Origin: Nannocystis bainbridge
Lineage (GTDB): Bacteria; Myxococcota_A; Polyangia; Nannocystales; Nannocystaceae
DNA: 64,000 nt
Direction of reading: 5' to 3'
Assembly (NCBI RefSeq): GCF_028368995.1
Contig: NZ_JAQNDL010000002.1
Coordinates: 481,724 to 545,723, forward strand
In this document: piece after piece, positions 27,125 to 61,944 of the stretch
How the letters are laid out: each line of letters starts with the position of its first letter
Numbering within the stretch: position 1 is the first letter of the stretch
Program-made: the position numbers and the translations under genes
Notes under the pieces: model-generated
What the model was told of the DNA's origin: nothing
What the model saw: the letters and a program-made list of their open reading frames with translations, nothing else
The model's database searches: none

Positions 27125-27140
27125 GGCGATCGGCTGGCGA

Positions 27141-29395: not shown

Positions 29396-29418
29396 CGCGG
29401 CGGCGCGGAGGTGCGGTC

Positions 29419-36525: not shown

Positions 36526-36817
36526 GGCCCACGCGCGCGGCCGCGCGTACTCGCGGGGCCGACCGCCGGCGCTGTCCGGGGGCCGCAGACGACCACGCAA
36601 GACCATGCCCGGCCGAGGATGCCGGAGGCGCCCCGGGTTGTCGAGGCGACGTCGACGCGCGCCAGGCCCAGGGAGCGCCGGTCCCAGGGTCGCAGGGAGT
36701 GGGCGCAGGCATCACGGGCGCGAGGCTGGGAGGCGCGAGGGCGCGGGCGTCACCCGCGGGGCGGATGCAGGACAGAGGGATCGGGCATCACCGGCGCGAG
36801 GAGCGTGGACGCGGGCA

Positions 36818-37983: not shown

Positions 37984-37990
<7 letters not shown>
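36818..37990 (-). CDS. GAF-histidine kinase (HisKA+HATPase_c) module; C-terminal fragment of the frameshifted giant kinase gene
   Basis: GAF-like 'CAPILGHGELLGVLYLDN'. H-box 'NMSHELRTPLNAV'. G-boxes 'DTGVGI', 'GSGVSLAL'. Frame differs by 1 from the upstream fragment. Confidence 0.6.
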
Positions 37991-41861
<3,871 letters not shown>

Positions 41862-42149
41862 GTGGGGCCCAGTGTGCCTTGCCGCGCGGGCGACAGACAC
41901 TGCGACGTGAGGGCTCGCTTCCGCGCCGACGCTGCGGCGGCGCGAGCGACCTCCGGCGGCGCCGCCCCGGTCGCCTCGCAGCGCCGATGCGGCGCCCGGG
42001 GTCGGGCGCGGGCGGCGGGATCACGGGCGCGTCGTGAGGCTCGTCGCGCGGCGCCGCCGTCGGTGACGTCGTGGCGCGCGAGCCGGCGATCTCTGTGCGG
42101 CGACTGGACCTCGCGTCCGGCGGGGCGGAGCGCTGCTGTCCCGGGGAGC

Positions 42150-44674: not shown

Positions 44675-45527
44675 ATATCGCGCGAGCCGGTGCGGCGATT
44701 CGAGCGCAGCCCGTGCGATTCGCAAATCACACAGGTGCGGACTTCCACGAGTGTTTGGCGTGACCCTGTCGCCCGCTCATGCGCAATCGCATGAGGACCG
44801 ACCTGGCCCGCGAAACCCCGCGTAGAGCCCTTGCGCCGCCTCCGGAGCCGCTGGTGCGTGAACGCCCGTAGGCGCCCACGCTAGCGTGAACTCGAACTGG
44901 AGCGCCCGAATCCGCTGACGGATCGAGGACTCCGGGTCCGGTCGGTGCGACGAGGCAACATACGGACGATGTATCATGGGGTCGCCGGGGCGTCAAGCGA
45001 CCTTCGCATAATTCGACGATGAATGATGCGAGCGACAATGCGAGGGGAGGCGGCACGCACTGCGATGATTGACGGCCCGCCGCGGGCGCGCGGACAGGGG
45101 CCGCACGGGCGCGCACGATCGAGCGCATGGCGGCGAGGGCCGGGCGCGTCGTCGAGTTCGTCCGTGCCTCCACGCGCCACGCGCCGGAGATTCTCGTCGT
45201 CGGGCGTGACGGCAGACGCCTGCGTCCCCGCAGGTCAGCGCCGATCTACCCAGGGCGCGGGCGTTGACGCCGCCGGGGCCGGTGAGGTACGCATGGGGCC
45301 GCATGGCAGTCCACGGCGGCGGATCGCCCGGGCCCAAGGCGGGCGAACGCGCCGGCGGCGTGGCGGGCCGCCGCGACATGGGCCTTGAGGCGACCGTCGA
45401 CTCCGACACCGTCGACGGCCCGAGCGCGGGCATGACCGGCGGCCCCTCGACCGGCCGGGCGCGGATGCCCGCGCACCTCGACTCGACGTCGTCACAGGAC
45501 GCGTCGAGCGTGTTCGACGCGCGGTCG

Positions 45528-48500
45528 ATGCCGATGAACATCGGCCGCCACGAGCTGGTGCGGCCGCTCGGGATGGGCGGCATGGGCCAGGTGTTCGAGG
45601 CGCGCGCGCCCGACGGCACCACGGTGGCGCTGAAGATCATTCGCGGCACCAGCCCCGAGCGGCTCTACCGGTTCAAGCGGGAGTTTCGCTCGCTGTCGGC
45701 GGTGGTCCACCCGAACATCGTCGCGCTCTACGACCTCGTCCACGTCGACGACGGCGGCGGCCAGGGCCTGGCGTTCTTCACGATGGAGCTGCTGCGTGGG
45801 GCCCACTTCGTGTCCGCGGTGCGCGACGAGCTGGCCGAGGGCGCGCTCGACGAGCCGGCGCTGCGACGATTGCAGGACGCGATGGTCGGCCTGGCGTGCG
45901 GGCTGTCGTGCGTGCATCGCCATGGCCTGGTCCACCGCGACATCAAGCCGTCGAACGTGATGATCACGCCGACCGGCCGCGTGGTGGTGCTCGACCTCGG
46001 CCTCGTGCGCGAGAGCCGGGTCGCCTCGTTCGACAGCGTCGGCGAGAACCACGCGCTGCTCGGGACGCCGCTCTACATGGCGCCGGAGCAGGTGATCCGC
46101 TCCGACGACGCCGGCCCGGCCGCCGACTGGTACGCCGCCGGCGAGGTGCTGTGGGAGTGCCTGCACGGCGAGTCGCGCCACGCCGGGCGCACGCTGGTCG
46201 AGGTGTTCGAGCGCAAGCTGATGGAGCCGCCGACGCTGCCGCGGCGCGCCGGCGTGCCGCCGCACCTGGCGCAGCTGTGCCTCGACCTGCTGGCGCGCGA
46301 GCCCGCGGCGCGGCCGAGCGCCGGCGACGTGCTGGTGCGGCTCGGTCGCGGCGATCTGGTTGCGATCGAGCTCACGGTCCAGGGGCTGCTCGGGCGCGAG
46401 CACGAGGCCCGGCTGCTGCGCGATCAACTGGCGCAGACCGGCCGCACCAACGCGGTGTTCGTCAGCGGGCCGTCGGGCTTCGGCAAGACCACGCTGGTCG
46501 AGCACGTGCTCGACGTGGCCCGCCGCGAGGACGCGGTGGTCGCGTTCACCGGCAGCTGCTCGGAGCGCGAGTCGATCCCGTTCAAGGCGCTCGACTCGGC
46601 GATCGACGCGCTCAGCCTCTACCTCTGCAACACCGACGCCGACGCGACCGCGATCGCCCGCCCCGACGATCTGGCGGCGCTGGCCCGCCTGTTCCCGATC
46701 TTGCGCACGGTGCCGGCGATCCGCGATCTCGACGACGCGTGGCTCGAGGGCTGCGATCCGATCGAGATCCGCCGCCGCGCCGCCGATTCGCTGGCCGCAT
46801 TGTTGACGCGGATCGCCACGCGCCGGCCGGTGGTGCTGGCGCTCGACGACCTGCAGTGGGCCGACCTCGACAGCGTGCTGCTGCTCGAGTCGATCCTGCT
46901 GCGCAAGCACCCGCCGCCGATCACGCTGCTCGGCAGCCACCGCGAGGGCACCGAGACCACGCGCGCGCCGCTGTCACACCTGTGGAAGGCGCTCGAGGCG
47001 GCCGAGTTCATCGGCCTGCGCCGGGTATTGGTCGGGCCGCTGTCGGACGAGCAGTCGCTGGCTCTGGCCGCACGCCTGCTCGGCGGGCCGGTCGACGATC
47101 CGGTGGCCGCGCGGATCGCCCGCGAGGCCGGTGGCAGCCCGTTCTTCATCGGCGAGCTGGTCCGCCACGCGCTCGCCCACGGCGGCCTCGACGAGGCCGG
47201 CCTCAGCCTCGACAGCCTGCTGCGCGCGCACCTGCAGCGGCTGCCGCCGTCGGCCAAGCGGCTGGTCGAGGTGCTCGCGGTCGCCGGCGGTCGGCTGCCG
47301 CGCACGCTCGCGGTCGACATCGTCGCCGCCGCGGCCGGCCCGGTCGATCGCGGCACGCTGGCCCGCCTGCGCGCCGAGCATTTGATCCGCATCGCCGACG
47401 CGTCGCAGGACGACGTGCTCGAGACCTACCACGATCGCGTGCGCGAGGCCGCGGCGCAGGAGGCCGCCGAGTCGCAGGGCTCCGAGCTGGCGGCGATCCA
47501 CCTGGCGATCGGCGAGGCGCTGCTGAGCAGCGGCGCGGCCGACACGGCCACCCTGGCGCACCACTTCCGCGCCGCCAACGACACCGAGCGCGCGACGCAA
47601 TTCACCCTCGCGGCCGCGCTGGAGGCCGCCCGCGCGCTGGCCTTCGATCAGGCGGCCGAGCTGTTCCGGGCCGCGCTGTCGATCGGGGGCATCGACGCCG
47701 CCACGGCCACGCACACGCGCGCGCACCTGGCCGAAGCGCTGGCCAACGCCGGGCGCCTGCACGCCGCGGCGCGCGTCTACACCGACGCCGCCCACGCCGA
47801 CGACACCTCCGCCAGCGAGGCCCAGCGGACCGAGTGGTTGCGCCTGGCGACCGCGCATTTCCTCTCGACGGGGCACCACGACGAGGGCCGCGCGGTGCTC
47901 GAGGAATTGCTGCCGCGCGTCGGCCTGTCGCTGCCGCGCGGGACCGCCTCGACGATCGTCGCGCTGCTCGGCCAGCGGGCGCTGCTCGCCACCCGCAAGC
48001 TGGTGCTGCCGCCGCCCGGCGGTCCGCGCCTGTCGGAGCGCGACGCCCAGCGCCTCGACGTCTGCTGGACGGCCACGCGCGGCCTGCTCTACAGCGACGG
48101 CATCAGCTCGACGCTGTTCCACGCCCGCCACTTGCGGCTGGCGCTGGCGAGCGGCGATCCGCTGCGGGCCGCGCGGGCGATCGGCTACGAGGCCTACCTG
48201 CGGGCCTTGATGGAGGGCGGGGCCGCCGACGCGGCCGCGACCGCGATCTTCGACAGCCTCGAGGCCTCGGCGCCGATCCAGGCCAGCCCGTACGTGCTGG
48301 GAATGCTGGCACAGTACCGGGCGGGCGCGCATCAGATGCTGTGTCGATTCGAGCCGGCGATGGCCTCGTACGAGCGCGGCATCGCCATCCTGCGCGAGCA
48401 GTGCACCGGCGTGATGGACGAGATCGCGCAGATGGACGCGCATCGCATGATGGTCCTGCTGTACCTCGGCCGGATCGGCGAGCTCGGCGACGTCGCGTTC

Positions 48501-49199
48501 CGGCTGCTGCGCGAGTGCGCCGAGCGGCCCAACCCGTACGTCGAGGGCTTCGCTCGCGGCGTGCTCGGCAACCACGTCCACCTCGCGCAAGATCAGGCCG
48601 ACGCCGCTCACGAGCAGCTCGAGCTGTACCGTCGCAACGCACCCAAGAAATTCGAGGCGCATTTCTTCAACTGCGCGTCGAAGCAGACCGAGCTGCTGCG
48701 CTACCGCGGCCTGGCCGAGGAGGCGTGGCGGCAGAACCAGGCCGACTCGGCGATCGTCGAGAAGTTCCCGTTCTTCCGCGTGCCGTACGTGAAGGCCGAG
48801 TTCTACCGCTCGCGCGCCGCCAATGCGCTGGCCCTGGCCGCGCGCTCGCGGGACCCGGAGCCGCTGCTGAAGATCGCCCGCGCGGCCGCCAAGCAGTGCT
48901 TCCGCGTGCCGCTGCCGATGGCGGACGCCTACGGCCACCTCACGCTCGCCAGCGTCGCCGCGCTCGAGGGCAAGCTCGAGCTCGCGGCCACCGAGCTGCG
49001 CCGCACCGTCGCCGTGTTCGAGCGCCTGAACATGGCCAGCGACCTCGCGGCGTGCCGGCGCCGGCTGGCGGCGCTGCTCGGCGGCGACGAGGGTCGCGCC
49101 CAGCAGCAGGCCGCCGACGCCTGGATGGCCGAGCAGCAGATCCTGCGCCCCGATCGCTTCACCGACATGATCGCGCCGGGCTTCGACCGGCACACCTAG
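45528..49199 (+). CDS. Ser/Thr protein kinase - AAA/STAND NTPase - TPR multidomain signalling protein (an upstream in-frame start at 45378 is possible)
   Basis: Kinase 'GMGGMGQVFEA', 'VALKII', 'HRDIKPSNVMI', 'DLGL', 'APEQ'. Walker A 'GPSGFGKTTLV'. Long TPR-like C-terminus. GC3 stays high upstream to about 45378. Confidence 0.75.
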   Translation: MPMNIGRHELVRPLGMGGMGQVFEARAPDGTTVALKIIRGTSPERLYRFKREFRSLSAVVHPNIVALYDLVHVDDGGGQGLAFFTMELLRGAHFVSAVRDELAEGALDEPALRRLQDAMVGLACGLSCVHRHGLVHRDIKPSNVMITPTGRVVVLDLGLVRESRVASFDSVGENHALLGTPLYMAPEQVIRSDDAGPAADWYAAGEVLWECLHGESRHAGRTLVEVFERKLMEPPTLPRRAGVPPHLAQLCLDLLAREPAARPSAGDVLVRLGRGDLVAIELTVQGLLGREHEARLLRDQLAQTGRTNAVFVSGPSGFGKTTLVEHVLDVARREDAVVAFTGSCSERESIPFKALDSAIDALSLYLCNTDADATAIARPDDLAALARLFPILRTVPAIRDLDDAWLEGCDPIEIRRRAADSLAALLTRIATRRPVVLALDDLQWADLDSVLLLESILLRKHPPPITLLGSHREGTETTRAPLSHLWKALEAAEFIGLRRVLVGPLSDEQSLALAARLLGGPVDDPVAARIAREAGGSPFFIGELVRHALAHGGLDEAGLSLDSLLRAHLQRLPPSAKRLVEVLAVAGGRLPRTLAVDIVAAAAGPVDRGTLARLRAEHLIRIADASQDDVLETYHDRVREAAAQEAAESQGSELAAIHLAIGEALLSSGAADTATLAHHFRAANDTERATQFTLAAALEAARALAFDQAAELFRAALSIGGIDAATATHTRAHLAEALANAGRLHAAARVYTDAAHADDTSASEAQRTEWLRLATAHFLSTGHHDEGRAVLEELLPRVGLSLPRGTASTIVALLGQRALLATRKLVLPPPGGPRLSERDAQRLDVCWTATRGLLYSDGISSTLFHARHLRLALASGDPLRAARAIGYEAYLRALMEGGAADAAATAIFDSLEASAPIQASPYVLGMLAQYRAGAHQMLCRFEPAMASYERGIAILREQCTGVMDEIAQMDAHRMMVLLYLGRIGELGDVAFRLLRECAERPNPYVEGFARGVLGNHVHLAQDQADAAHEQLELYRRNAPKKFEAHFFNCASKQTELLRYRGLAEEAWRQNQADSAIVEKFPFFRVPYVKAEFYRSRAANALALAARSRDPEPLLKIARAAAKQCFRVPLPMADAYGHLTLASVAALEGKLELAATELRRTVAVFERLNMASDLAACRRRLAALLGGDEGRAQQQAADAWMAEQQILRPDRFTDMIAPGFDRHT

Positions 49200-49225: not shown

Positions 49226-52200
49226 ATGCAGGACCTCTCGCGTGCGCGTGAACTAGCCATTGCGCTTTCTCGAAACTCGGGCGGCACCGACGCCCACGCG
49301 CGGGCCGCCGCCCTCAGCGGCGAGCTGGCCTCGCTCTTCAATCACCCGACGGGCGCCCCGGGCACGCTGAGCGGCTATCAGGCCGAGGGCACCCTCGACG
49401 CGCGCGTCGCGGTGCTCGTATTGCCGGCGGCGACGGTGCGGCGATTGTTGCCCGCGGGGCTCGAGCTGGCGCCGCAGCCGGTCGTGCCGGCCGAGTATCA
49501 CCCGGTCTATCTGTTCTTCTCGCACGAGAACTTCCCCGCGTGGTTCGGCACCATGGATTACCATGAGCTGCTGATCGGCGTGCCGTGGGTGCAGATCGCG
49601 GATCCGAAGGCCACCTATCCCGGCCCGTTCGTCTACATGCCGCGGCTCTATCTCAATGAGCTGGCCCCGTGCGAGCTCGGCGTGCACATGTATGGGTGGG
49701 AGAAGCAGATGGGCACGCTCGACGTCGTCGGCGACGGCGCCCCGACGGTGCGGTTCACCGTCACGCCGAAGGACGGCAGCTCGCCGGCGGCGATCGGCGA
49801 GTTCACCGAGATCCCGGGCGTGGGCCCGAAGTCGTCGGCCGACTTCAAGAACTTCCTCATCGTCCGCCAATTGTTCGAGCAGCCGACCATCTCGCAGGCG
49901 CTGCACATCGTCGATCGCAACTCCTTCGACTCGAAGATCGCCGGCCCGTTTTTGGCCGCCAACAACACCCTCGAGGCCGACAAGGCGGGCGCGACGATCC
50001 AGCCGCTGGCGGCGACGATCACGATCGGCGCCTCGTTGACGCCGCCGGGCATCCCGCCGGGCACCTACCACGTGCCGAGCCTGCTCGACGCGGAGCTGGG
50101 CGCGTTCAGGATCCGCTGCCCGCAGGCCATCTCGCTGCCCGGCTCGTGCGCCGACGCCAGCTATCCGCGGCCGCCGGCCGCCCGCAAGCTCAGGGTCGCG
50201 GTGTTCGGCGGCGGGCCCTCGGCCTGCGTCGCCGCGCTGTACCTCGCGCGCCAGACCGATCGCTACCAGGTCACGCTCTACACCACCGGCTATCGCCTCG
50301 GCGGCAAGTGCCAGTCGTGGCGCAACCCGGACAAGGCCTGGCGGGTCGAGGAGCACGGCCTGCACGCGTTCCTCGGCTTCTATCACAACGCCTTCACGGC
50401 GGTGCAGGACGCCTATCACGACGGCTTCGCCAGCCCCGAGGTCGGCGAGGCGCTGTACCAGAACGCCTTCTACGCCGAGCACCACAACGGCCTGATGGTG
50501 CATCACCGCGGTGAATGGTCGTACTGTCCGCTGCCGAGCCCCTCGGCGGTGGCGCCGACGCCTTCGCCGACGGCCTCGTCGACCGGCGGGCACGCGCTGC
50601 TGATGGCCGTCGAGGCGCTGGCGCGGCGGGCCCTCGAACATTTCTCGGCGATGGCCGACGCGCACGCCGGCCTCGCCGACGGCATGGACGCGCACGCCTC
50701 GGTGCTGCAGCGGCTGCGCAGCGCGATCGTCGGGCTGGTCGTGCGCGCCGCGGAGGACATCTACGAGGCCGACCTCGGCGGCATCGACGACTTCATCGCC
50801 GCCGAGGTCGAGAAGGTGCGCGACAACCTCGCCAATCGGGTCCGCGCCACGCCTTCGCTGCCGACGTACCTGTGGTTCTTGTGGACCGGCGCCGACACGA
50901 TGCTGACGATCGCCGTCGGCCTGCTCAAGAACCCGGTGAAGAACCTGTCGGAGCTCGACGGCTCGGACTTCCGCGACTGGCTCAAGGCCAACGGCCTGCA
51001 CGAGGCCGCCGGCGAGTCGTGGGCCGTCATCGATCAGGTCTACGAGACCCTGTTCTCGCACCAGGACGCCGACCCGGCCAAGGACGCCTGCAAGCTGCTC
51101 GACACCGCCGTGCGCCCGGCCAACCTGGCCGCCGGCGTGGCCACGCGGTGGTTCTTGCTCGAGAGCCTCGGCTACCGCGGCGCGCCGGCCTACCGCTTCG
51201 AGTACAGCTGCGCGCAGACGATGATGACCCCGTACTACCTGGCGCTGCAGCGCCTGGGCGCCGAGGTCCGGTTCTTCCACACCGTCACCGGCCTCGAGCT
51301 CGCAGGCAGCGGCGAGCAGCGCGAGCTGGTGCGCGTGCACCTGCAGCGACAGGCCGAGGTCAAGGGAGGGCCCGCGGCGTATCAGCCGCTCGTCATCCCC
51401 GACCTCGCCAACAACCCGCCCGAGCTCCACGACTGGCCGCTCGATCCGGACTGGTCGCAGCTCGTCGACGGCGACTGGTACCGCGAGCACAACATCGACT
51501 TCTATGATTCGTGGCAGGCCGGTCGCAACACCCGGGCCACGCCGGTCCAGCTCGAGCGCGGCGAGGGGTTCGACCTGTGCGTGCTCGGGGTCCCGCTCGG
51601 CGCGTTGCCGCTGATCGACTCGCCGCTGACCCGGCCCACGCGGTCCGACGCCGATCCGGCGTGGAAGCGGATGATCGACGGCATCGCCGTGACGCAGACG
51701 ATGTCGTTCCAGCTGTGGCTCAAGCCCAACGCGGGGGCGCTGATCGCCGGGGCGCCGCGCGGCCTCCTTACCTGCTTCGCCCAGCCCGAGCCGAGCTACG
51801 GCGATTTTACGCCGCTCATCGCCCACGAGGAGTGGCAGGCCCCGGGGCCGCACCTGCTCTCGTACTTCACCGGGGCCTCGGTGGCCGGCAAGCCGCCGCT
51901 GCCGCCCGAGTGCGGGCCCGAATATCCGCGGCGGATCCAGGCGCAATGGGTCGCCAAGGTCACGCAGTGGCTCGGCGATCATTACGCCGAGTTCTATGAC
52001 GGCAGCAGCACGCCGGACAGCTTCGGCGGGTTCCTCGACGATCTCGTGGTCGAGGGTGAGCCGCTCATCGGCGCCGCGCGGCTCGAGTGGCAGCATTTGA
52101 TCGCCGACGTCGAGCCTTCGAACCTGTACGTCCTGAGCCAGCCGGGCTCGATCGGGCTGCGCCTCGGCCAGGCCGAGTCGGGCGTCAAGGGCCTGCTGCT

Positions 52201-52324
52201 GTGCGGCGACTGGACGCGCACCGATCTCAACTGCGGCTGCGTCGAGGCAGCGACCGCCTCGGGCATGCTGGCCGCGCGGGCGATCAGCAACGAGCCGCGC
52301 ACCGTATGGCGGCCAGGCTTCTGA
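49226..52324 (+). CDS. Fusion protein: N-terminal acetoacetate-decarboxylase-like (ADC-fold) domain plus phytoene-desaturase/amine-oxidase-like FAD oxidoreductase with a large internal insertion
   Basis: AGGAG RBS 7 nt upstream. ADC-like 'LLPAGLELAPQPVVPAEYHPVYLFFSHENF...YHELLIGVPWV'. FAD dinucleotide-binding motif 'VAVFGGGPSACVAALYLA...YRLGGK', 'EHGLHAFLGFYHN'. C-terminal 'LLLCGDWTRTDLNCGCVEAATASGMLAA' (amine-oxidase/CrtI/HpnE signature). Confidence 0.6.
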   Translation: MQDLSRARELAIALSRNSGGTDAHARAAALSGELASLFNHPTGAPGTLSGYQAEGTLDARVAVLVLPAATVRRLLPAGLELAPQPVVPAEYHPVYLFFSHENFPAWFGTMDYHELLIGVPWVQIADPKATYPGPFVYMPRLYLNELAPCELGVHMYGWEKQMGTLDVVGDGAPTVRFTVTPKDGSSPAAIGEFTEIPGVGPKSSADFKNFLIVRQLFEQPTISQALHIVDRNSFDSKIAGPFLAANNTLEADKAGATIQPLAATITIGASLTPPGIPPGTYHVPSLLDAELGAFRIRCPQAISLPGSCADASYPRPPAARKLRVAVFGGGPSACVAALYLARQTDRYQVTLYTTGYRLGGKCQSWRNPDKAWRVEEHGLHAFLGFYHNAFTAVQDAYHDGFASPEVGEALYQNAFYAEHHNGLMVHHRGEWSYCPLPSPSAVAPTPSPTASSTGGHALLMAVEALARRALEHFSAMADAHAGLADGMDAHASVLQRLRSAIVGLVVRAAEDIYEADLGGIDDFIAAEVEKVRDNLANRVRATPSLPTYLWFLWTGADTMLTIAVGLLKNPVKNLSELDGSDFRDWLKANGLHEAAGESWAVIDQVYETLFSHQDADPAKDACKLLDTAVRPANLAAGVATRWFLLESLGYRGAPAYRFEYSCAQTMMTPYYLALQRLGAEVRFFHTVTGLELAGSGEQRELVRVHLQRQAEVKGGPAAYQPLVIPDLANNPPELHDWPLDPDWSQLVDGDWYREHNIDFYDSWQAGRNTRATPVQLERGEGFDLCVLGVPLGALPLIDSPLTRPTRSDADPAWKRMIDGIAVTQTMSFQLWLKPNAGALIAGAPRGLLTCFAQPEPSYGDFTPLIAHEEWQAPGPHLLSYFTGASVAGKPPLPPECGPEYPRRIQAQWVAKVTQWLGDHYAEFYDGSSTPDSFGGFLDDLVVEGEPLIGAARLEWQHLIADVEPSNLYVLSQPGSIGLRLGQAESGVKGLLLCGDWTRTDLNCGCVEAATASGMLAARAISNEPRTVWRPGF

Positions 52325-52347
52325 GCCATCCAAAGGGAGGAAATGCC

Positions 52348-54348
52348 ATGACCGACGATCGCACCGGCAACGACATCGACCTCGCGCCCGCGGCCGCCGC
52401 CTCGCGCGACACGACCCAGAGCAACTGGTCGGAGACGATCAGCTTCACGCCCGCGACGGCCGCGTCGCCGCGCTGCCTCGTGGAGCTGCGCGAGCTCGTG
52501 CGAGCGGCCCACGCCGCGCGCAAGCAGGTGCGCGCGCGCGGCAGCGGCCACTCGTGGAACCCGGCGATCGTGACCGCCGATACCTCGGTGAACACCAGCC
52601 TGCTGGCCCCCAACGACGAGCACGTGTGCGGCGGGTCGGGGACCGGCAATTGCCTCGAGATCTTTCATTCGACGGTGACCGGCGCCGACGGTCGCACGTA
52701 TCGGCGGATCAGCGTGCCCGCCGGCATGTGCCAGGGCGATTTCGCAAGGTTGGCGCAGCAGCTCGGCGCGCCGCTGCCGACCCAGGGTCCGGCGCCCGAC
52801 ATCACCCTCAGCGGCTTCGTGGCCAACGGCTGCCACGGCACCGGCTGGTCCGAGCCGACCATCGCCGAGCTGGTCTACGGCCTCGACGTGGTGGGGCCTG
52901 ACGGCAGCGTGCTCAGCTTCACCGCCGATTCGAGCCCGCCGGGGTTCGAGGCGCTGGGGCTCGATCCGGCCGCGCTGATGAACGTCGTGCGCGTGAACCA
53001 GGGCGCGCTCGGGGTGCTGGCGCGCATCGTGTTCCAGCTGCCGGCCGAGCCGTTCAACCTGCGCGTCTCGAACGCGTTCGTGCCGGTGACCGACGTGTTC
53101 GACCGCGCCGATCCATCCAAGCTGCAGCGCCTGATCGAGGGCCACGATTACGTCGAGATTTTTTGGTTCCCCTACAATAATTATACGATGAAGGGGCTCA
53201 CCCCGGTGCCCGCGGGGCCGGAGCAGGACACGCTGTGGGTGATGATGCTCGACCGCACGAGCGAGCCGGTCAGCGGCGACGCGACCTTCGTCGATCTGTG
53301 GAACGACGCATTCGGGGTGTTGGCCCTGGCCGGTGGGGCGATCGGCCCCGTCATCGATCGCCTGCCGCGGGTGGTGCCGGCGATGTCGAACTTCGCGCTG
53401 CACACGATGAAGTGGAAGAACCACTTCAGCGACCCGGTCGTGCTGAGCCCGCCCGACGCGTTCCTGTATCAGAAACACTACTTCCGCAGCTTCCTCGACC
53501 TCGAGTTCACGCTGCCGATGGACGGGGCGCAGGGCTTCGCCGACGTGGTTGCGGCGTTCTATCAGTTGGTCGATCGCATGGAGGCGTGGCGCAGCGGCAG
53601 CGAGGGCGACGCCGAGTACCCGATCAACCTCAACGCCCACGCGCGGTTCGTCCGCAACAGCCAGGCGACGCTGTCGCCCGCGTTCGCGCCGGCCGGCTCG
53701 TCGCAGCACACCTGCTACTTCGAGTACCTCAGCTACTCGCACGGCGATCTGACCGACCACTACCTGGCGTTCAACCGCGAGTTCTACAAGCCGGCGCACG
53801 GGCTCGGCTGGAAGAAGTGGGGCGGCCTGCCCAATTGGGGCAAGTACCTGGGGAGCGTGCCGGGCATCGACGAATACGTGCACACGATCCTGGCGGCGAA
53901 GACCGGGGCGGAGCCGAGCCGACTCGAGCAGTTCCTGGCGGTGCGCGACCGCATCGATCCGGACGGGGCGACGTTCACCAACGATTACCTGCGCGGCTTC
54001 TTCAGCGGGCAGGCGGTGGCCGGCGAGACGCGGCTGCGCGGGGCGCCTGCGGGGCGCTTTTTGGCCATGCCGGCCGTGCCGCCGCGCCGGGCGTTCCCGC
54101 TGGCCAACGTCGAACACGCGACGCCGACGCGGCCGATGCAGGCGGAGAGCATGGAGCTCTATCACGACCTGGCGGCCGGGGCGGCGTTCCTGCTCAACGA
54201 GCACGGCGAGGTCAACCTGCTGGCGCTCGAGCACGATCCTTCGACGGGGCTGCTGCACTACGTGCCGGCGTCGCCGTCGCAGCACCTGGGCTTCGAGGAG
54301 ATCCTCGACCGGGTGGCGCGGTTCCATGCGCCGCTGCGGGCGGTGTGA
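52348..54348 (+). CDS. FAD-linked oxidase of the PCMH-type / D-arabinono-1,4-lactone (gulonolactone) oxidase family
   Basis: GGAGGA RBS. 'RARGSGHSWNP' (covalent-FAD GxGHS motif). ALO-type C-terminal domain. 666 aa. Confidence 0.65.
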   Translation: MTDDRTGNDIDLAPAAAASRDTTQSNWSETISFTPATAASPRCLVELRELVRAAHAARKQVRARGSGHSWNPAIVTADTSVNTSLLAPNDEHVCGGSGTGNCLEIFHSTVTGADGRTYRRISVPAGMCQGDFARLAQQLGAPLPTQGPAPDITLSGFVANGCHGTGWSEPTIAELVYGLDVVGPDGSVLSFTADSSPPGFEALGLDPAALMNVVRVNQGALGVLARIVFQLPAEPFNLRVSNAFVPVTDVFDRADPSKLQRLIEGHDYVEIFWFPYNNYTMKGLTPVPAGPEQDTLWVMMLDRTSEPVSGDATFVDLWNDAFGVLALAGGAIGPVIDRLPRVVPAMSNFALHTMKWKNHFSDPVVLSPPDAFLYQKHYFRSFLDLEFTLPMDGAQGFADVVAAFYQLVDRMEAWRSGSEGDAEYPINLNAHARFVRNSQATLSPAFAPAGSSQHTCYFEYLSYSHGDLTDHYLAFNREFYKPAHGLGWKKWGGLPNWGKYLGSVPGIDEYVHTILAAKTGAEPSRLEQFLAVRDRIDPDGATFTNDYLRGFFSGQAVAGETRLRGAPAGRFLAMPAVPPRRAFPLANVEHATPTRPMQAESMELYHDLAAGAAFLLNEHGEVNLLALEHDPSTGLLHYVPASPSQHLGFEEILDRVARFHAPLRAV

Positions 54349-54395: not shown

Positions 54396-54515
54396 TGTGA
54401 TTGGGGCTCCCGAACGACGCGAGGTGAAGTGGTTGTGGCGGCGAGCCGCGAAGCGGGCGGCTCCCGCGCGCGTGGCCGTGCGAAACTTCGCGGGTGGCGG
54501 GGCGTTCGCAAGGGC

Positions 54516-54824
54516 ATGCCCGTCCGCGCGCTGCTCGCCCTCGTCCTGGTCTCGATCGCCTGCGGCCACGCCCGCGGCAGAGAGGTGGCAGAGACGCCCG
54601 GGCTGGCAGAGCAGCCGCAGCCGGCGGAGGTCGAGGCCGCTGCGCCAGCGCCGGAGGTCGAGGCCGCTGGGCCGGGGTCGGAGCATGCGAGCGCGCAGGT
54701 GATCACGTTCAGCGGCGACGATGCGGATCCAGAGCCGTCGACGCAGATCCGCAGCCCGCCGAAGCGGCCGCCGATCCCGAGCTTCCAGCTGTACGGCACG
54801 CGGCCGACCGACGGGCCGCGGTGA
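54516..54824 (+). CDS. Small lipoprotein with Pro/Glu/Ala-rich tail
   Basis: 'LALVLVSIACG' lipobox. 102 aa. Confidence 0.4.
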   Translation: MPVRALLALVLVSIACGHARGREVAETPGLAEQPQPAEVEAAAPAPEVEAAGPGSEHASAQVITFSGDDADPEPSTQIRSPPKRPPIPSFQLYGTRPTDGPR

Positions 54825-54965
54825 GGCGCGCGGGGCCTTCGACCTCGAAGCGATGGGCCAGTGAGCCCCCCGTTCGCGTCGGTGGCGAACGTCCAGCCAG
54901 GGAGCTTTGCCCGAGGGCGCAGGGGAGCGGCGCGTGGGCCGGTGCGCGGCCGGGGGCTCGCGGCT

Positions 54966-56201
54966 ATGATGACGGCTCTCCTGCGCGAGCGAGCGCGCGC
55001 GCGAGGCCGAAGGAGCGACATCGTGAGCGTGTCCGTCAACCCTCCCAAGACGCCGGTGACCGCGGGCAGCAGCGGCGTGGCCGCCGCGACGGTGCCGAAC
55101 GTGTGCAAGATGCCCGGGCCGCCGGCGCCGTTCGTGCCGACGCCGCTGCCCAACATCGGCAAGAGCGGCGACTCGCCGAAGGGTTATTCGCAGCAGGTCC
55201 GGATCGCCGGCAAGAAGGTGGCGATCAAGGGCGCGAGCTTCGGCTCGACCGGCGACATGGCGAGCAAGGCGACCGGCGGCGGGATCGTGTCGAACAACAC
55301 GCACGGGCCGACGAAGTTCGTCGGGCCCGGATCGATGGACGTCAAGATCGAGGGCAAGAACGTGCAGCTGCTGAGCGACCCGATGCTCAACAACTGCGGA
55401 CCGAGCGGGACGCCCGCGAACGCGGCGACGCTGCTCGGGGTGATCCAAACCAGCGGGATGGTGACAGCGGTGGAAGCCGGGCCGTGCCCGATCTGCGAGA
55501 AGAGCCACGGAGAGCTGAGCGAGTCGCCGCAGACGAAGCTCGACGCAGGGGGGCTGGCTGCGAGATTCGAGGCGGAGGTCCGGCCGATCATCGACGAGGT
55601 GGAGGCGCGAGGCCCGGACGACAAGCTGCCCGTGAGCACGATGCTCGGAATCGTGGCGTGCAAATGCGGGAAGAAATACGCGGACCAGTCGGCGGCGACG
55701 ACCATCGAGTTCTGCAAGGCAGCCGAGGGGATGAAGCACCCGGCGGACGTGACGCTGTCGTATCGCCACGGAAGGCCGGTGCTCGACAGGGCCTATCTGG
55801 AGTCTCTCAAGACGGTGCGGGAGCGGATCGGCGCGCACCTCGGGAACTCGCCGCTCTTTCGCGAGACCTGGGAGGATGCCAGTCAGCGCGCTGCAGAGAG
55901 TGACAGGCAGCGGTCGGGGCCAGCCGCTTACCCGCCCGGCACTTGCGCAGCGCAGAAGACGCTCCTGTTGCTGATGGACGACGGCGCCCTGGCGGCGGCG
56001 ATGACGGAGAAGTGGTACAGCAGCAGGAAGAGCAAGACGCAGGCGCCGATCCGGTATGTGGATGCTCGCGGCGGCGCGCGTATGGAGGTCGTCGCAAAGT
56101 TCAAGCACGGCGACACGGTGCCGCCCTGCGGGGCATGCGAGCTGCTCGTGCCGTTGCTGCTCTGCGCGGGAGGTAAGGCGGAATGCGAACACAAGAGCTA
56201 G
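54966..56201 (+). CDS. Polymorphic toxin: N-terminal PAAR-like DUF4150 domain (T6SS-effector type) plus Cys/His-rich C-terminal putative toxin domain
   Basis: 'VSVNPPKTPVTAGSSGVAAATVPNVCKMPGPPAPFVPTPLPNIG...GSTGDMASKATGGGIVSNNTHGPTKFVGPGSMDVKIEGKNVQLLSDPMLNNCG' matches the DUF4150/PAAR-like architecture. C-terminus has 'CPICEKSHGE' and 'PPCGACELL' zinc-ligand-like motifs. Confidence 0.65.
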   Translation: MMTALLRERARARGRRSDIVSVSVNPPKTPVTAGSSGVAAATVPNVCKMPGPPAPFVPTPLPNIGKSGDSPKGYSQQVRIAGKKVAIKGASFGSTGDMASKATGGGIVSNNTHGPTKFVGPGSMDVKIEGKNVQLLSDPMLNNCGPSGTPANAATLLGVIQTSGMVTAVEAGPCPICEKSHGELSESPQTKLDAGGLAARFEAEVRPIIDEVEARGPDDKLPVSTMLGIVACKCGKKYADQSAATTIEFCKAAEGMKHPADVTLSYRHGRPVLDRAYLESLKTVRERIGAHLGNSPLFRETWEDASQRAAESDRQRSGPAAYPPGTCAAQKTLLLLMDDGALAAAMTEKWYSSRKSKTQAPIRYVDARGGARMEVVAKFKHGDTVPPCGACELLVPLLLCAGGKAECEHKS

Positions 56202-56938
56202 AGCCGGAGATGGAAGCGCTGTACCGCAGCCTCGTGCCTGACTTCGAAGCGCAGGTGGTCGGGGCGACGGAAGGCGAGGTGGAACATATCGAGGCGCTCG
56301 CCGGTCGGCCCTTGCCGCGGTTCTATCGCTGGTTCTTGCTGCGCATGGGAGGCCATATGGGCCCCTTCGAGTATCCGACGATCGACTTCACGGCCAAGGC
56401 GGTGCTCGCTGCCTATTCCAAACGGCTTGTTCATCCGGATTCGCGGTTCCTGATGATTGGCCATGAGGGGGACGAGATGATGCCCCTGCACGTGTTCTAC
56501 GATCTCGATTGCCTTGCACGGGACGATGCTCGCGTGACCAAGAACCACGTGCTCGGCGGCGAATTTCACCATCAGTTCGAGACCCTGCGAGAGATGTTCG
56601 CGTGGGGAAATGTCCTGGCGCTGCACGTCGAGGAGCTCGGGCAACGTTGCGTCGGCAACTTCTATGATCCCGAAGGCGATGTCCTGGCGCGCCTCGTGCC
56701 CGTCCTGACCAACCTCGGCTTCGCCAGCCCGATTGCGACCGGCTCGCATTGCGGCTTGTTTCGCGGACCGCGAGGGGCCGTGGTGACTCGCGCCACTCCC
56801 GGTCTCGAGACCGATATTCACACGTTTCGCATGGGCGCCGCCGATGCGGGCGGCCTGCGCCGGATCCTGGGCGCGATCGCTTGCGAGACGGCCCTGAAGG
56901 TCAACGTGAGAGAATGGTTCCCTCCGCTTGCGCCATAG
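56183..56938 (+). CDS. SUKH (SMI1/KNR4)-family putative immunity protein (true start may be the ATG at 56210)
   Basis: 'VEHIEALAGRPLPRFYRWFLLRMGG' resembles the SUKH N-terminal motif. Gene overlaps the 3' end of the toxin gene, as in toxin-immunity pairs. Confidence 0.5.
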   Translation: MRTQELEPEMEALYRSLVPDFEAQVVGATEGEVEHIEALAGRPLPRFYRWFLLRMGGHMGPFEYPTIDFTAKAVLAAYSKRLVHPDSRFLMIGHEGDEMMPLHVFYDLDCLARDDARVTKNHVLGGEFHHQFETLREMFAWGNVLALHVEELGQRCVGNFYDPEGDVLARLVPVLTNLGFASPIATGSHCGLFRGPRGAVVTRATPGLETDIHTFRMGAADAGGLRRILGAIACETALKVNVREWFPPLAP

Positions 56939-57177
56939 CGCGGGCGTGAAAGGCAGAATCCTGCCGGCGCCATCTCATCCTGGCGTCATGTAAGGCCGCC
57001 GCACCGTGTGCAGACCCACCATGGAACGCTGGCCCGCGTCGCTGCGGTGGGGACGTGCATTCGCGGGCCCGGCGATGCCCGCGTTTGAGCGACGTTTGCG
57101 CGCATGTGACCTGCGGATGGTGACGGCGGTGATGGCTGCGTCCGCTGGGGCGCCGGCTTGTGTATGGTGGGGGTTGT

Positions 57178-58839
57178 ATGTCCGCGCGCCGCCTCGCCCC
57201 GGTCCTCGTCTTGTTCGCCGCTTGTAGCCCGCCCACGGCCGGCGGGACCGACGACGCCAGCAGCGGCAGCGAGGCGACCGGCACGACGGCGCCGACGGGC
57301 ACCACCACGACTTCGAGCGGCGAGCTGCCCGATCCGACTACCACCGGCACCACGGGCGACGACAGCACCACCAGCACCAGCGAGCCGCTGCCCGAGCCGC
57401 TGGCGCCGCTCGAGGGGCCGGTGCCGCTGACCGACGAGGTGGTGCGCGTGCCGACGCACCCGGTCGACGAGGACAAGCTGCTCGACCTGCGGCTGCCGGC
57501 CGACGTGGCGACCGCGCTGGCCGAGGGCTACGGCGACGTCATGCTCGCGGCGGGCGAGCCGGTGCTGCCGCGCACGCTCGACGACGCGGAGCCGCCGACG
57601 CCGGGCGCGGCGCCGAAGCTGCTGGTGCGCTTCGTCCATCTGGCCGACACCCAGCTCGCGGACGACGAGTCGCCGGCGCGGCTGGCCTCGTTCGACGAGG
57701 TCTCGGGCGGCGCGTTTCGGCCGCAGGAGGGCCACGTGTGCCGCATGCTCAACGCGGGGGTGCGCACGATCAACGCCCTGCACGTCGACGACCCGCTCGA
57801 CTTCGTGCTGCTCGGCGGTGACAACACCGACAACGCCCAGACCAATGAGCTCGAGTGGTTCCTTGGGATCTTGAACGGGGCGCCGGCGGTCGAGTGCGAC
57901 TCGGCGATCGACGACGATCCGCTGCCGGGGCCCGACAACGATCCGAAGGACCGGTTCGCGCCGGTGGGCCTCGACGTGCCGTGGCGGTGGGTGGCCGGCA
58001 ATCATGACGTGCTGCGCCAGGGCACGTTTGGGATCCTCGACTTCAGCGAGCCGATCGGCGACGCGTCGGTCGGAGGGACCCGGGATTACGGGCAGCCGGG
58101 GGCGCCGATCGTCAAGGGCATGGTGCCGGCCGACCCGGCGCGGGCGTTCCTCACCGAGCCGGAGCAGGTCGCGTGGGTCGCGGGCGACGGCGACGGCCAC
58201 GGGCTCGACGCGGCGGCGGTCGAGCTCGGGCGGGCGTTTTACACCTTCGACGTCGCGGGCACGCCGCTGCGCTTCTTCGTCCTCAACACGTCGTCGCTGA
58301 AGGGATCGAGCCAGGGGCTGATCCGGGCGGTCGACCTCGAGGCGATCATCGGGCCGACGCTCGACCAGGCGGTGGCCGACGACAAGTGGGTGATCGTGAC
58401 GTCGCACCACCGCTCGGGCAGCCTCGGCGACGGCCAGGAGTTCGGCATCGGCACCAAGTACGACGACGCGCTGACGGCGGTGCAATGGCAGGAGTTCCTC
58501 GGCAGCTACGACAACGTGATCCTGCACCTTGCCGCGCACACGCACCGGCTGATGGTCGAGGCGATGCAGCCGGCCGGGGGCCACGCGTACTGGGAGATGG
58601 TGACGCCGTCGCTCAACGATTTCCCGTCGCAGATGCGGGTGCTCGAGGTGTGGGATCAGGACAACGGCGCGCTGACGATCCAGGCCCGCGCGTTCGACAT
58701 GATCACCGACGACGATCCGGTGGCCGAGATGGGCCGGACGCTGGCGATCGCCGACTTCACGTCGGGCTGGGAGAACGACGGCCGCGGCACCGGGCCCGAT
58801 CAGCGCAACGTGGCGCTGTGGATCGCGGCGCCGGAGTGA
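57178..58839 (+). CDS. Calcineurin-like metallophosphoesterase lipoprotein with Thr/Ser-rich linker
   Basis: 'LVLFAACS' lipobox. 'LLGGDNTDN', 'VAGNHD', 'LAAHTH' metallophosphoesterase motifs. Confidence 0.7.
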   Translation: MSARRLAPVLVLFAACSPPTAGGTDDASSGSEATGTTAPTGTTTTSSGELPDPTTTGTTGDDSTTSTSEPLPEPLAPLEGPVPLTDEVVRVPTHPVDEDKLLDLRLPADVATALAEGYGDVMLAAGEPVLPRTLDDAEPPTPGAAPKLLVRFVHLADTQLADDESPARLASFDEVSGGAFRPQEGHVCRMLNAGVRTINALHVDDPLDFVLLGGDNTDNAQTNELEWFLGILNGAPAVECDSAIDDDPLPGPDNDPKDRFAPVGLDVPWRWVAGNHDVLRQGTFGILDFSEPIGDASVGGTRDYGQPGAPIVKGMVPADPARAFLTEPEQVAWVAGDGDGHGLDAAAVELGRAFYTFDVAGTPLRFFVLNTSSLKGSSQGLIRAVDLEAIIGPTLDQAVADDKWVIVTSHHRSGSLGDGQEFGIGTKYDDALTAVQWQEFLGSYDNVILHLAAHTHRLMVEAMQPAGGHAYWEMVTPSLNDFPSQMRVLEVWDQDNGALTIQARAFDMITDDDPVAEMGRTLAIADFTSGWENDGRGTGPDQRNVALWIAAPE

Positions 58840-58988
58840 CGGCGAGTCTGTCCTGAAGGACATGTGCCTCGTCCCGCCGGGCTTCGAGCGCTCCGCCGGT
58901 GCATCGGCGCGCGGTTCGGCCCACCTCGCTCTACCGAGGTTCGCTGGCCGCGATTGCGCGTCCGTGGCATCTTGAGCGAGAGGTCGTG

Positions 58989-60309: not shown

Positions 60310-61671
60310 TCACGCAGGATCGGTGACGCGGCCGTAGAACAGCAGCACGCCGCTCCGCACGTCGCGGATGTAGAACAGGAACGGGCGGTCGACCAGGAAC
60401 GGGGTCGGGCTGGTCGGTGCGCCGCCCACGGCGATCTCGATCGCGCTGGGCGGCGAGCCGTCGGCGCCGCGCTCCTCGACGGTGAGGCGCGCCCGGTGGT
60501 GCACGGCTTCGAGCGCCAGCTTCTTCTCGCTGGCCATCGCGTCGAGCTCCGCGCGGCGGGCGTCGAACACCCGCGCGGCCCCGAGCTTGGCGACCACCGG
60601 GGCCAGGTCGAGGGTGCTGTCGAGGCTGAAGCGCGGCATTTGGAGGTCGATCGGGGCCGGCTTGGCGGCGTCGATCCAGCCCTGCAGCCGCTCGTAGTCG
60701 AAGCCCTTCTCGACGTCCTCGAGGCCGCCGCGGGTCGAGGGCAGGAGGATGATCATGCTGTACTCGCCGCCCCGGTACGGCAGCTCGAGCAAGCGCAGCT
60801 TGCCGGCCAGGCCCAAAGTGGTGGAGAGGCGCTGGACGCTGCGCATCATCGGCACCGGCTCCTTGCGTTGGTGGCCGTAGAACAGCACCGGCTCGGTCGC
60901 CTTCGGGTCGAAGGGCTCGAGCCAGTCGGCCTTGAAGGCGGCGACGTCGGTGACGAGCAGGCGGGTGGCGGCGGTCAGGGCCTCGGGGCTGAGGATCTGG
61001 TCGATCGCGGCGTCGGTCTCCTCGCGGGCCCAGCCGTTGATGTGATCGCGCGCGCCGACGAGGTCGCCGGCGAAGTCGAGCGTGCCGAGCGGCGATGCGA
61101 AGACCTTGCGGGTGAGGTCGAGGTACTCGGGCTTGAAGTCGTGGCTGCGATCGCCGAACACCCGGCTGGCGGTGACGAGGCTGACGTGAGCGCTGGGGTG
61201 ATTCCAGCGAGCGGCGAGGTGGGCCAGGGCGGTGTGGACATCGCCGGTCAGGCCGTCGAGGTGGAGGACGTCGGCCAGTTCGCGCTCGGTGGCCCCGCTG
61301 GCGCCGGCGTGCAACATCGCCAGGGCGACCGAGACGCTCATGCCCGAGAAGAGCAGGTTGCCGGGCTGCTTGGCGAGCTTGCGCTGGAGGTCGATGGTGA
61401 GCTCGTTGATGCTGCGACCGAGAGCCTGCTTGAGCTCGGCGTTGTGGCCCTTGACGACCGGCGCAGGCGCGGGCTTGACCGGCTCGGAGGGCGGGGCCTC
61501 GGCGGCGAGCACGGTCCTGTCGGCGGCCGGCGTGGGGGTCGGCGGCGCGGTGGGGATGGCGGCCGGGGCGGCGACGGTGGCGAGCGGGGCGGGCTCCGAG
61601 GGCGCCGCCGTGGTGTCGCAAGCGACCAGGGCGACGCAGACGAACAAGAGGCGGGGGTCTCGCTGCGACAT
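60310..61671 (-). CDS. Serpin (serine protease inhibitor) family lipoprotein
   Basis: C-terminal serpin signature 'FLVDRPFLFYIRDVRSGVLLFYGRVTDP'. Hinge/reactive-centre-loop region 'GADGSPPSAIEIAVGGAP'. 'LLFVCVALVACD' lipobox. Confidence 0.75.
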   Translation of the reverse strand: MSQRDPRLLFVCVALVACDTTAAPSEPAPLATVAAPAAIPTAPPTPTPAADRTVLAAEAPPSEPVKPAPAPVVKGHNAELKQALGRSINELTIDLQRKLAKQPGNLLFSGMSVSVALAMLHAGASGATERELADVLHLDGLTGDVHTALAHLAARWNHPSAHVSLVTASRVFGDRSHDFKPEYLDLTRKVFASPLGTLDFAGDLVGARDHINGWAREETDAAIDQILSPEALTAATRLLVTDVAAFKADWLEPFDPKATEPVLFYGHQRKEPVPMMRSVQRLSTTLGLAGKLRLLELPYRGGEYSMIILLPSTRGGLEDVEKGFDYERLQGWIDAAKPAPIDLQMPRFSLDSTLDLAPVVAKLGAARVFDARRAELDAMASEKKLALEAVHHRARLTVEERGADGSPPSAIEIAVGGAPTSPTPFLVDRPFLFYIRDVRSGVLLFYGRVTDPA

Positions 61672-61944
61672 GAAGAAGGATGGTGCCGCAAGTCGCCGCG
61701 CACGAGCGCGCCTGCGAGGGGCTGTCGCCTGGCAGGACGGCGACGGGGGGCTGCGCGCCCAGGCGCGGGCGACAGGGCGCCAGGTCACCGGACTCAGCCG
61801 CGCGCGGCCATCGTGCGTGGGGGCGTGCAGCCTCGAAGGTCGCGATTGCGCGTGCGGCCGCCGGGCCTTTTAAACGGCCGATCGGGGCCGATCCGGGTGA
61901 TCGCGCCGTGAGGACCTCGGCGTGGGATCATGGCTTTTTGGACA

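Follow-up and report, generated by a model that had tools for sequence, protein, structure and literature searches.

A putative polymorphic effector module of Nannocystis bainbridge with a predicted deaminase-fold toxin domain and a putative SUKH-fold immunity protein

A putative toxin gene overlaps a putative immunity gene

We analysed a 64,000-nucleotide stretch of the Nannocystis bainbridge genome (NCBI RefSeq assembly GCF_028368995.1, contig NZ_JAQNDL010000002.1, positions 481,724 to 545,723 of the forward strand; hereafter the window) and found a two-gene module in which the gene for a putative PAAR-like polymorphic effector, here called the toxin gene, is followed by an overlapping, putative immunity gene (Table 1). 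Both gene products are 100% identical to N. bainbridge proteins at NCBI, where they are named 'PAAR-like domain-containing protein' (toxin) and 'SMI1/KNR4 family protein' (immunity). The G+C content of the window is approximately 72%, and the module is poorer in G+C, at 0.64–0.69; at third codon positions (GC3) the values are 0.88 for the toxin gene, 0.76 for the immunity gene and 0.94 for the next gene. No repeats or inverted repeats around the module, and no promoter or terminator consensus sites, were found above background. Residue numbers in the toxin refer throughout to the mechanical open reading frame (ORF), 54861..56201 on the plus strand.

Using hmmscan, we found that the N-terminal region of the toxin matches PF13665 (Tox-PAAR-like, DUF4150) with 61.8 bits against a gathering threshold of 31 (E = 7.9e-17), covering profile positions 4–103 of 108. 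This bears out the PAAR-like N terminus proposed in the original prediction, an earlier annotation made from the letters of this DNA alone. That annotation had placed the toxin start at ATG 54966, which is 57 nt too far upstream. We instead place it at GTG 55023, which gives a protein of 392 residues, because the N termini of toxin homologues read 'MSVSVNPPKTPV', with 30 of them starting 'M[ST]VSVNPPKTPV', and because an AAGGAG box precedes this codon. The NCBI start at V66 (nt 55056; 381 residues) looks 33 nt, or 11 codons, too short.

The NCBI start of the immunity protein (56210) likewise appears to be nine codons too short. An N-terminal extension, 'M.xQ[DE]LEPE', is kept in most of 77 homologues and reads 'MRTQELEPE' in the window protein, and many of the homologues have no methionine where NCBI starts the protein. 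Because of this conserved extension, the missing methionines and a GGAGG box inside the 3′ end of the toxin gene, we take the 19-nt overlap of the two genes to be real, as the original prediction had it. The start codons at NCBI appear to be wrong for both genes and therefore hide this overlap, which suggests that translation of the toxin and immunity genes may be coupled.

Predicted fold of the toxin domain

The C-terminal 257 residues of the toxin have no match in Pfam or NCBIfam. An AF2 model of this domain, built from a 78-sequence alignment, has a pLDDT of 97.2 and a pTM of 0.93. In the numbering of the model, in which C173 corresponds to ORF residue C362, the order of elements is helix 1 (34–59), strands 1 and 2 (70–78 and 83–87), a helical insert (93–160), helix 2 (174–184), strand 3 (189–198), a β-hairpin (208–223) and helix 3 (237–244). 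The model thus contains the three-layer α/β/α core of the cytidine deaminase (CDA) fold, made of helix 1, strands 1 and 2, helix 2, strand 3 and helix 3. The canonical strands 4 and 5 are either missing from the model or replaced by the hairpin before helix 3.

Weak, sub-threshold Foldseek matches to the model are cytidine deaminases. The structural neighbours that come after them are the deaminase toxin SsdA (5.1) of a type VI secretion system (T6SS), guanine deaminase (5.0), dCMP deaminases, TadA and ADAT2. At the profile level, a narrow alignment of Bacillus cytidine deaminases yielded a single weak hhalign match (probability 23%), which was correctly placed on the motif: it pairs 'AAYPPGTCAAQ' of the toxin with 'AAYSMCNCAER' of Bacillus subtilis cytidine deaminase, so that C362 falls on the zinc ligand C53 and A364 on the catalytic E55. 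Nothing was found by hhalign against a YwqJ-deaminase toxin or against Escherichia coli Cdd. A 2011 survey of deaminase clades makes no mention of myxobacteria (PMC3239186).

Predicted zinc ligands and candidate active-site residues

In the model, C362 opens helix 2, and C423 and C426 open helix 3. These three cysteines are predicted to bind zinc, as they sit in the model exactly at the zinc-ligand positions of the deaminase superfamily. Among 144 family members with a near-complete toxin domain, on which all conservation counts are based, C362 and E383 are each present in 144, M261 is invariant and S277, which follows strand 2, is kept in 141; C423 and C426 are conserved in all 143 members that are aligned at these positions.

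Eight further cysteine and histidine residues (C209, C212, H216, C267, C269, C435, C442 and H444) are highly, though not absolutely, conserved. In the knuckle that precedes helix 1, C209 is found in 134 members, C212 in 133, H216 in 116 and E221 in 120. The divergent member P0320 lacks all eight of these accessory residues, yet it keeps C362, E383, S277, C423 and C426, which fits the assignment of these five residues as the functional core. When we looked for covariation among the accessory residues, only their joint loss in P0320 stood out. Eight is the right number of ligands for two structural zinc sites, and the accessory residues probably form two such sites that staple together the N terminus, the strand 1–2 hairpin and the C-terminal tail. 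Judging from the topology of the modelled fold, they should lie opposite the end of the domain that holds the C362 site.

The module behaves as a polymorphic toxin

The toxin domain is present in approximately 87 close homologues, and a profile search of 1.84 billion representatives returned 205 clusters at 50% identity that carry it. In most of these it is fused to PF13665. Most of the matches are metagenome proteins, and nearly all family members that are named or assigned to a genome are Myxococcota. The domain also occurs behind CarboxypepD_reg repeats (P0323 and P0326), behind a UCH domain (P0320) and in a fusion with ketosynthase-like and PAAR-like regions (P0235). Because it is reused behind unrelated N-terminal modules, it behaves as a mobile toxin cassette.

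Between Nannocystis species, the PAAR domain is 96% identical and the flanking genes are 83–88% identical, whereas identity falls to 64–70% in the toxin domain and 52–71% in the immunity protein. Mean pairwise identity across 23 non-redundant loci is 82% for PAAR, 45% for the toxin domain and 51% for the immunity protein. The toxin and the immunity protein diverge in a correlated way: Mantel r is 0.74, a value that none of 2,000 permutations reached, and the partial correlation is 0.52 when PAAR divergence is controlled for. This correlation is partly due to shared phylogeny; the contrast with the flanking genes is independent of it. The module therefore combines the features of a polymorphic toxin: a conserved N-terminal trafficking region, a fast-diverging toxin domain, an adjacent immunity gene and reuse of the toxin module.

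P0320, a protein of 1183 residues, carries its divergent copy of the toxin domain mid-protein, together with a eukaryote-type ubiquitin C-terminal hydrolase (UCH, PF00443). In Nannocystis exedens DSM 71, all that is left of the toxin gene at the locus corresponding to window positions 54455–58846 (L036, 7617–8842) is its 3′-terminal 96 nt, with 82% identity to window positions 56097–56192. This remnant is joined directly to the lipoprotein gene on one side and to codon 315 of the metallophosphoesterase gene on the other; missing are the PAAR domain, most of the toxin, the entire immunity gene and the neighbouring gene's 5′ part. It is either the relic of a decayed module or an assembly artefact.

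The immunity protein

The original prediction had recognized a SUKH-type N terminus in the downstream protein. This stands at the level of the fold, but not as a Pfam assignment: the match of the window protein to PF09346 (SMI1_KNR4) scores 19.6 bits, below the cut-off of 25.4, and covers only the N-terminal 36 profile positions. Among the 77 homologues, 46 match PF09346 and 19 match SUKH_5 at E ≤ 0.01, the best PF09346 match having an E value of 6.3e-05. The structural model has the SUKH α+β fold, with 131–143 residues aligning to SUKH structures, and contains further secondary structure past the SUKH part from approximately residue 145 (a strand at 145–152 and onward).

A homologue of the immunity gene lies directly 3′ of the toxin gene in nearly every related locus that has downstream sequence. 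On the grounds of this adjacency and of the correlated divergence of the two proteins, we infer that the most likely role of the SUKH-fold protein is to bind the toxin domain and to protect the producing cell and its kin.

Relatives of the immunity protein may also occur apart from the module. P0173 and P0175, close homologues that are 44–47% identical to the window protein, come from metagenome-assembled genomes (MAGs) labelled Luteimonas and Methylococcaceae, outside Myxococcota, and N. bainbridge itself has a second paralogue on another contig (P0179, 42% identical). All three may be orphan immunity genes.

Secretion context

The original prediction described the module as an orphan without T6SS structural genes nearby, and our scan agrees. 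We searched 37 ORFs of the window against Pfam, its main candidates with high GC3, leaving a few shorter ORFs unscanned; none of the 37 encodes VgrG, Hcp, a Tss protein, DUF2169, DUF4123 or DUF1795. In Nannocystis pusilla and Nannocystis sp. RBIL2, the gene order around the module is the same: FAD oxidase, small lipoprotein, toxin, immunity protein and metallophosphoesterase. Neither DUF2169 nor a ketosynthase-like adaptor was found within 8–10 kb upstream of the orthologous Nannocystis loci.

In other genera, the order is DUF2169, a ketosynthase-like protein of approximately 350 residues, the PAAR-like toxin and the immunity gene. This arrangement occurs in Archangium, Myxococcus, Citreicoccus, Pyxidicoccus, Hyalangium, Cystobacter, Enhygromyxa and several MAGs, and it accounts for most of the other-genus myxobacterial loci that have enough upstream sequence. 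The ~350-residue protein is homologous to the ketoacyl-synthase-like N terminus of the fusion protein P0235. Previous work has linked the DUF4150 subtype of PAAR mainly to T6SSs and places DUF2169 next to it in more than 75% of cases (PMC8651086), and PRK06147-like ketosynthase homologues encoded just 5′ of PAAR-toxin genes have been proposed to be adaptors (PMC7714669). Nannocystis and Nannocystales have been reported to carry vgrG and T6SS genes (PMC5801462, PMC10196010). Delivery by a T6SS is well supported by analogy. The module forms a standard T6SS cassette in other genera, whereas in Nannocystis it occupies a conserved chromosomal site as an orphan.

Two of the related loci have unusual arrangements. 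In Citreicoccus inhibens M34 (L019, 2755–9478), two complete toxin–immunity cassettes stand in tandem behind one DUF2169 gene, each with its own ketosynthase-like gene, the first of which looks fragmented. On a metagenomic contig (L005, 5400–7857), a cassette of DUF2169, ketosynthase-like and PAAR-toxin genes has directly 5′ of it a toxin gene of the YwqJ-deaminase family (PF14431) and, after that gene, a DcrB/DUF1795 gene; the arrangement resembles an effector island that holds two toxins of deaminase type. Gene context also raised the idea of an RNA-damaging toxin, as an RNA ligase and an HD/AAA_33 kinase are encoded upstream of a divergent N. pusilla copy (L004). We dropped this idea because other members of the L004 subfamily have the usual DUF2169 and ketosynthase-like context.

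Relation to known systems

In architecture, the module resembles Tde2 of Agrobacterium tumefaciens and TseV of Salmonella bongori, which have an N-terminal PF13665 domain, a C-terminal toxin domain and an immunity gene directly downstream. Both are loaded with a DUF2169 adaptor, and in other myxobacteria a DUF2169 gene is found upstream of the toxin gene; for Tde2, the relationship with DUF2169 was reportedly described by Bondage and colleagues in 2016. Unlike the nucleases Tde2 and TseV (Ntox15 and VRR-Nuc), the window toxin has a deaminase-like fold, and the window copy has no adjacent adaptor genes, having either lost them or never had them. TseV effectors have been described as a PAAR-like domain combined with VRR-Nuc (PMC9635880).

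Among deaminase toxins, SsdA (BaDTF2/DYW-like) and DddA (SCP1.201-like) keep the glutamate of the H/C-x-E motif and match Pfam deaminase families, whereas the window family has C-A-A/G in its place and matches no family. The window family also differs from both in having no strands after helix 3 and approximately eight extra cysteine and histidine residues. Compared with the homotetrameric cytidine deaminases and blasticidin-S deaminase (PF00383/PF08211), the window domain lacks the catalytic glutamate and the arginine that follows it, as well as the C-terminal strands that form the oligomer; it has a helical insert of approximately 70 residues and is fused to a secretion domain. The immunity protein differs from YobK/YobL-type SUKH immunity proteins (PF09346) in being approximately 100 residues longer, with an extra C-terminal α/β domain, and in its sub-threshold Pfam score.

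Feature coordinates and neighbouring genes

Table 1 Features of the toxin–immunity module, in window coordinates
Feature	Coordinates	Strand	Basis or remark
Shine–Dalgarno-like AAGGAG, 7 nt 5′ of the toxin GTG	55010..55015	+	Read from sequence
Toxin gene, putative 392-aa PAAR-like polymorphic effector; GTG start, TAG stop (56199-56201)	55023..56201	+	ORF list; start from homologue N termini and ribosome-binding site
PF13665 Tox-PAAR-like (DUF4150) domain	55086..55397	+	hmmscan, ORF residues 76-179
C-terminal toxin domain, 257 aa, predicted zinc-binding deaminase (CDA-like) fold, no Pfam family	55428..56198	+	
'CPxCxxxH...E' knuckle (C209, C212, H216, E221), predicted structural zinc site	55485..55523	+	Precedes helix 1 of the model
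Most variable toxin-domain region in alignments	55704..55907	+	Model secondary structure
'PPGTCAAQK': C362, predicted helix-2 zinc ligand; A364 at the canonical catalytic Glu position	55932..55958	+	
E383 ('MTE[KRQ]W', strand 3), candidate relocated catalytic residue	56007..56009	+	Invariant
'PPCGAC', PCxxC zinc motif opening helix 3 (C423, C426)	56121..56138	+	Model position
C435...C442-x-H444 tail, predicted structural zinc site with C267 and C269	56163..56192	+	Conservation and joint loss in P0320
GGAGG ribosome-binding site of the immunity gene, within the toxin 3′ end	56169..56173	+	Read from sequence
Immunity gene, 251 aa, ATG start, 19-nt overlap with the toxin gene	56183..56938	+	N-terminal extension shared by most homologues
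SUKH (SMI1/KNR4) fold domain of the immunity protein, approximate limits	56210..56629	+	
Extra C-terminal α/β domain of the immunity protein, approximate limits	56630..56935	+	Model elements past the SUKH part

By Pfam content, the 37 scanned ORFs include STAND-type Ser/Thr kinases, oxidases, beta-lactamase-like proteins, a PI-PLC, an FGE-sulfatase/SPASM pair, an AdoHcy hydrolase, a LysR regulator, an amidohydrolase, a polysaccharide deacetylase, a metallophosphoesterase, a WD40-like protein and a serpin.

Just 5′ of the toxin gene lies a small gene of 102 codons (54516-54824, plus strand) with a lipoprotein-like signal ('LVSIAC'). This gene, whose motif is 'AQVITFSGDDADPEP..QIRSPPKRPPIPSFQL', is conserved in N. 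pusilla, N. sp. RBIL2 and N. exedens, and a 27-nt tandem duplication lies within it (54622-54675). Further upstream, a 1020-residue protein (49262-52324, plus strand) combines an acetoacetate-decarboxylase-like N terminus with an NAD_binding_8/amine-oxidase region and is followed by a FAD_binding_4/ALO-type oxidase (52087-54348, plus strand); the pair is conserved beside the toxin site in Nannocystis species. Downstream of the module, at a distance of 3.4 kb, is a gene for a bacterial serpin (60310-61788, minus strand; PF00079, 287 bits); the orthologous locus in N. pusilla carries it as well.

Two very large Ser/Thr kinases, of 1716 and 1311 residues, are fused to AAA_16/STAND NTPase domains (36750-41900, minus strand, and 45264-49199, plus strand), and a third kinase (9766-12789, minus strand) has TPR repeats and an N-terminal zf-HC2 motif. 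A cluster at 25200-30447 on the plus strand contains an FGE-sulfatase-like gene (26432-27124) and a gene for a SPASM-domain protein (29419-30447) amid ORFs that have no Pfam match, and may be a peptide- or sulfatase-maturation cassette.

Discussion

With moderate confidence, we favour the interpretation that the module encodes a polymorphic T6SS effector, with a non-canonical zinc-binding deaminase-fold toxin domain and a SUKH-fold immunity protein, that in Nannocystis lies remote from T6SS genes. It is grounded in the observed domain architecture, predicted folds, conservation, strict toxin–immunity linkage, co-diversification and the adaptor context of other genera. What we say of toxicity, of the substrate, of the role of E383, of zinc stoichiometry and of a dependence on the T6SS in this strain is expectation.

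In such an effector, the PAAR-like domain of the 392-residue protein would cap a VgrG spike that is encoded elsewhere in the genome, and on firing of the T6SS the C-terminal domain, being covalently attached, would be injected into a neighbouring cell. In that cell, the predicted zinc site of C362, C423 and C426 would use water to hydrolyse the substrate, with E383 most likely acting as proton shuttle; the active site would most likely be completed by this invariant strand-3 residue together with S277. Most probably, the domain would act on a nucleic-acid base or nucleotide in the cytoplasm of the target cell, by zinc-dependent hydrolytic deamination or by a hydrolysis closely related to it. 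All structural neighbours point, by analogy, to a cytosine or adenine base as the most probable substrate, be it in DNA, in RNA or in a nucleotide. Producers and their kin would be shielded by the SUKH-fold product of the overlapping gene.

Several observations weigh against this interpretation. The residue two positions after C362, at which a deaminase has its catalytic glutamate, is alanine in 124, glycine in 19 and leucine in 1 of the 144 members and is never glutamate or aspartate, so that the [HC]-x-E motif is absent. In a rough register against B. subtilis cytidine deaminase, E383 falls mid-strand, possibly too deep for the zinc site. Strands 4 and 5 are absent after helix 3, where the model has 13 strand-free residues. 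Foldseek against the PDB gave no match at E ≤ 1e-3, and a family profile searched against PDB sequences found nothing. The deaminase family match that the original prediction had proposed to look for was not obtained for the window protein in Pfam or NCBIfam, and 25 family members had no Pfam deaminase match even at E ≤ 10. Finally, an association with T6SS spike or adaptor genes is not seen among the scanned ORFs of the window, so that T6SS delivery in this strain is putative. Because a defining feature of deaminases was looked for and is absent, we do not class the domain as a deaminase but as a deaminase-fold toxin whose chemistry is unproven. The earlier suggestion of a heavily inserted deaminase thus survives for the fold, which does contain insertions, but not for a canonical enzyme, the catalytic glutamate being missing. 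What remains is a non-canonical active-site constellation on a deaminase fold.

How this constellation might work can be explained in more than one way. It is possible, if somewhat on the unlikely side, that the family is an unrecognized clade of active deaminase-fold toxins in which the general acid/base has moved from helix 2 to strand 3 (E383), with a three-cysteine zinc site and two extra structural zinc sites. We consider it rather unlikely that the deaminase-fold scaffold has been re-purposed and that the C362/C423/C426 zinc, E383 and S277 carry out another reaction, such as that of a JAB/JAMM-like amidohydrolase or peptidase, or the cleaving of a nucleotide cofactor. According to Iyer et al. 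2011 (PMC3239186), JAB enzymes and nucleotide or ADP-ribose enzymes are also found within the deaminase-like fold, which speaks for a change of chemistry. So do the absence of the canonical C/H-x-E glutamate from 144 of 144 members, the lack of any deaminase profile match, and the placement of an invariant glutamate and a serine on other secondary-structure elements, reminiscent of how catalytic residues are distributed in JAB enzymes.

A catalytically dead domain seems improbable to us. Such a pseudo-deaminase would resemble ADAT3 and Tad3, deaminase-fold proteins without the catalytic glutamate that are inactive subunits, and could do harm by binding tightly to nucleic acid or an essential protein; alternatively, the domain could be a structural or spike-associated extension and no toxin at all. 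The family-wide loss of the catalytic glutamate, together with the inactivity of these known glutamate-less proteins, fits this explanation. However, a co-diversifying SUKH immunity gene is linked to the domain in nearly every locus, the domain is reused behind unrelated trafficking domains, and C362, C423, C426 and E383 are absolutely conserved, and these are the hallmarks of an active toxin in an arms race.

We regard it as equally improbable that the resemblance to deaminases is a coincidence, arising from a small α/β core in a predicted model, and that the domain is a new multi-zinc toxin fold. The original prediction had offered a novel zinc-dependent toxin fold as one of its options; the positions of C362, C423 and C426 in the model lead us to read the domain as a deaminase fold with a non-canonical active site.

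Delivery by a route other than the T6SS, such as an extracellular contractile injection system (eCIS) or another contact-dependent pathway, is distinctly unlikely. It would agree with the lack of T6SS, DUF2169 and ketosynthase-like adaptor genes among the 37 scanned ORFs of the window and in the 8–10 kb upstream of the Nannocystis orthologues, and some PAAR subtypes are indeed linked to eCIS (PMC8651086). Yet the DUF4150 subtype is mainly a T6SS one with frequent DUF2169 neighbours, according to the same study, and DUF2169 accompanies most of the sufficiently covered loci in other myxobacterial genera.

Least credible is the canonical deaminase of the original prediction, with its HxE (H216-G-E218) and PCxxC motifs split by an insertion of 200 residues: the strings 'CPICEKSHGE' (ORF residues 209–218) and 'PPCGACELLVPLLLC' (421–435) are both present, 214 residues apart, and H216 is kept in 116 of the 144 members, but the residue at position 218 is variable across homologues (E, D, A, T and others), the motif comes before helix 1 instead of opening helix 2, and P0320 dispenses with the whole knuckle while keeping the C362/E383/C423/C426 core. 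The predicted helix-2 ligand is C362, in the expected position and with the expected spacing, 61 residues before C423, which is near normal once a β-hairpin insert of approximately 25 residues is counted.

The toxin–immunity module is ordinary in kind, and its annotation at the domain level is already in public databases. Its C-terminal domain, by contrast, is a new, undescribed and largely Myxococcota-restricted variant of the deaminase-fold toxin theme. Motif-based surveys would miss this toxin family, because no curated deaminase profile sees it and the textbook catalytic glutamate is absent.

The deaminase toxins DddA and SsdA have given rise to mitochondrial and other base editors, and for this reason each structurally distinct clade of deaminase toxins is a candidate tool. 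If the catalytic residue has indeed been relocated to E383, the family would represent a new active-site solution in the deaminase superfamily; its specificity for substrate or for sequence context on DNA or RNA could also be new, and base editing could thereby gain a new scaffold. An active domain would mean that the deaminase fold tolerates the moving of its catalytic residue. If the chemistry is a different one, the T6SS repertoire of the social, predatory myxobacteria would gain a new toxin activity. In addition, the dynamics of polymorphic toxins are clearly visible here at a single chromosomal site, where the PAAR domain and the flanking genes are conserved while the toxin and its immunity protein diverge fast.

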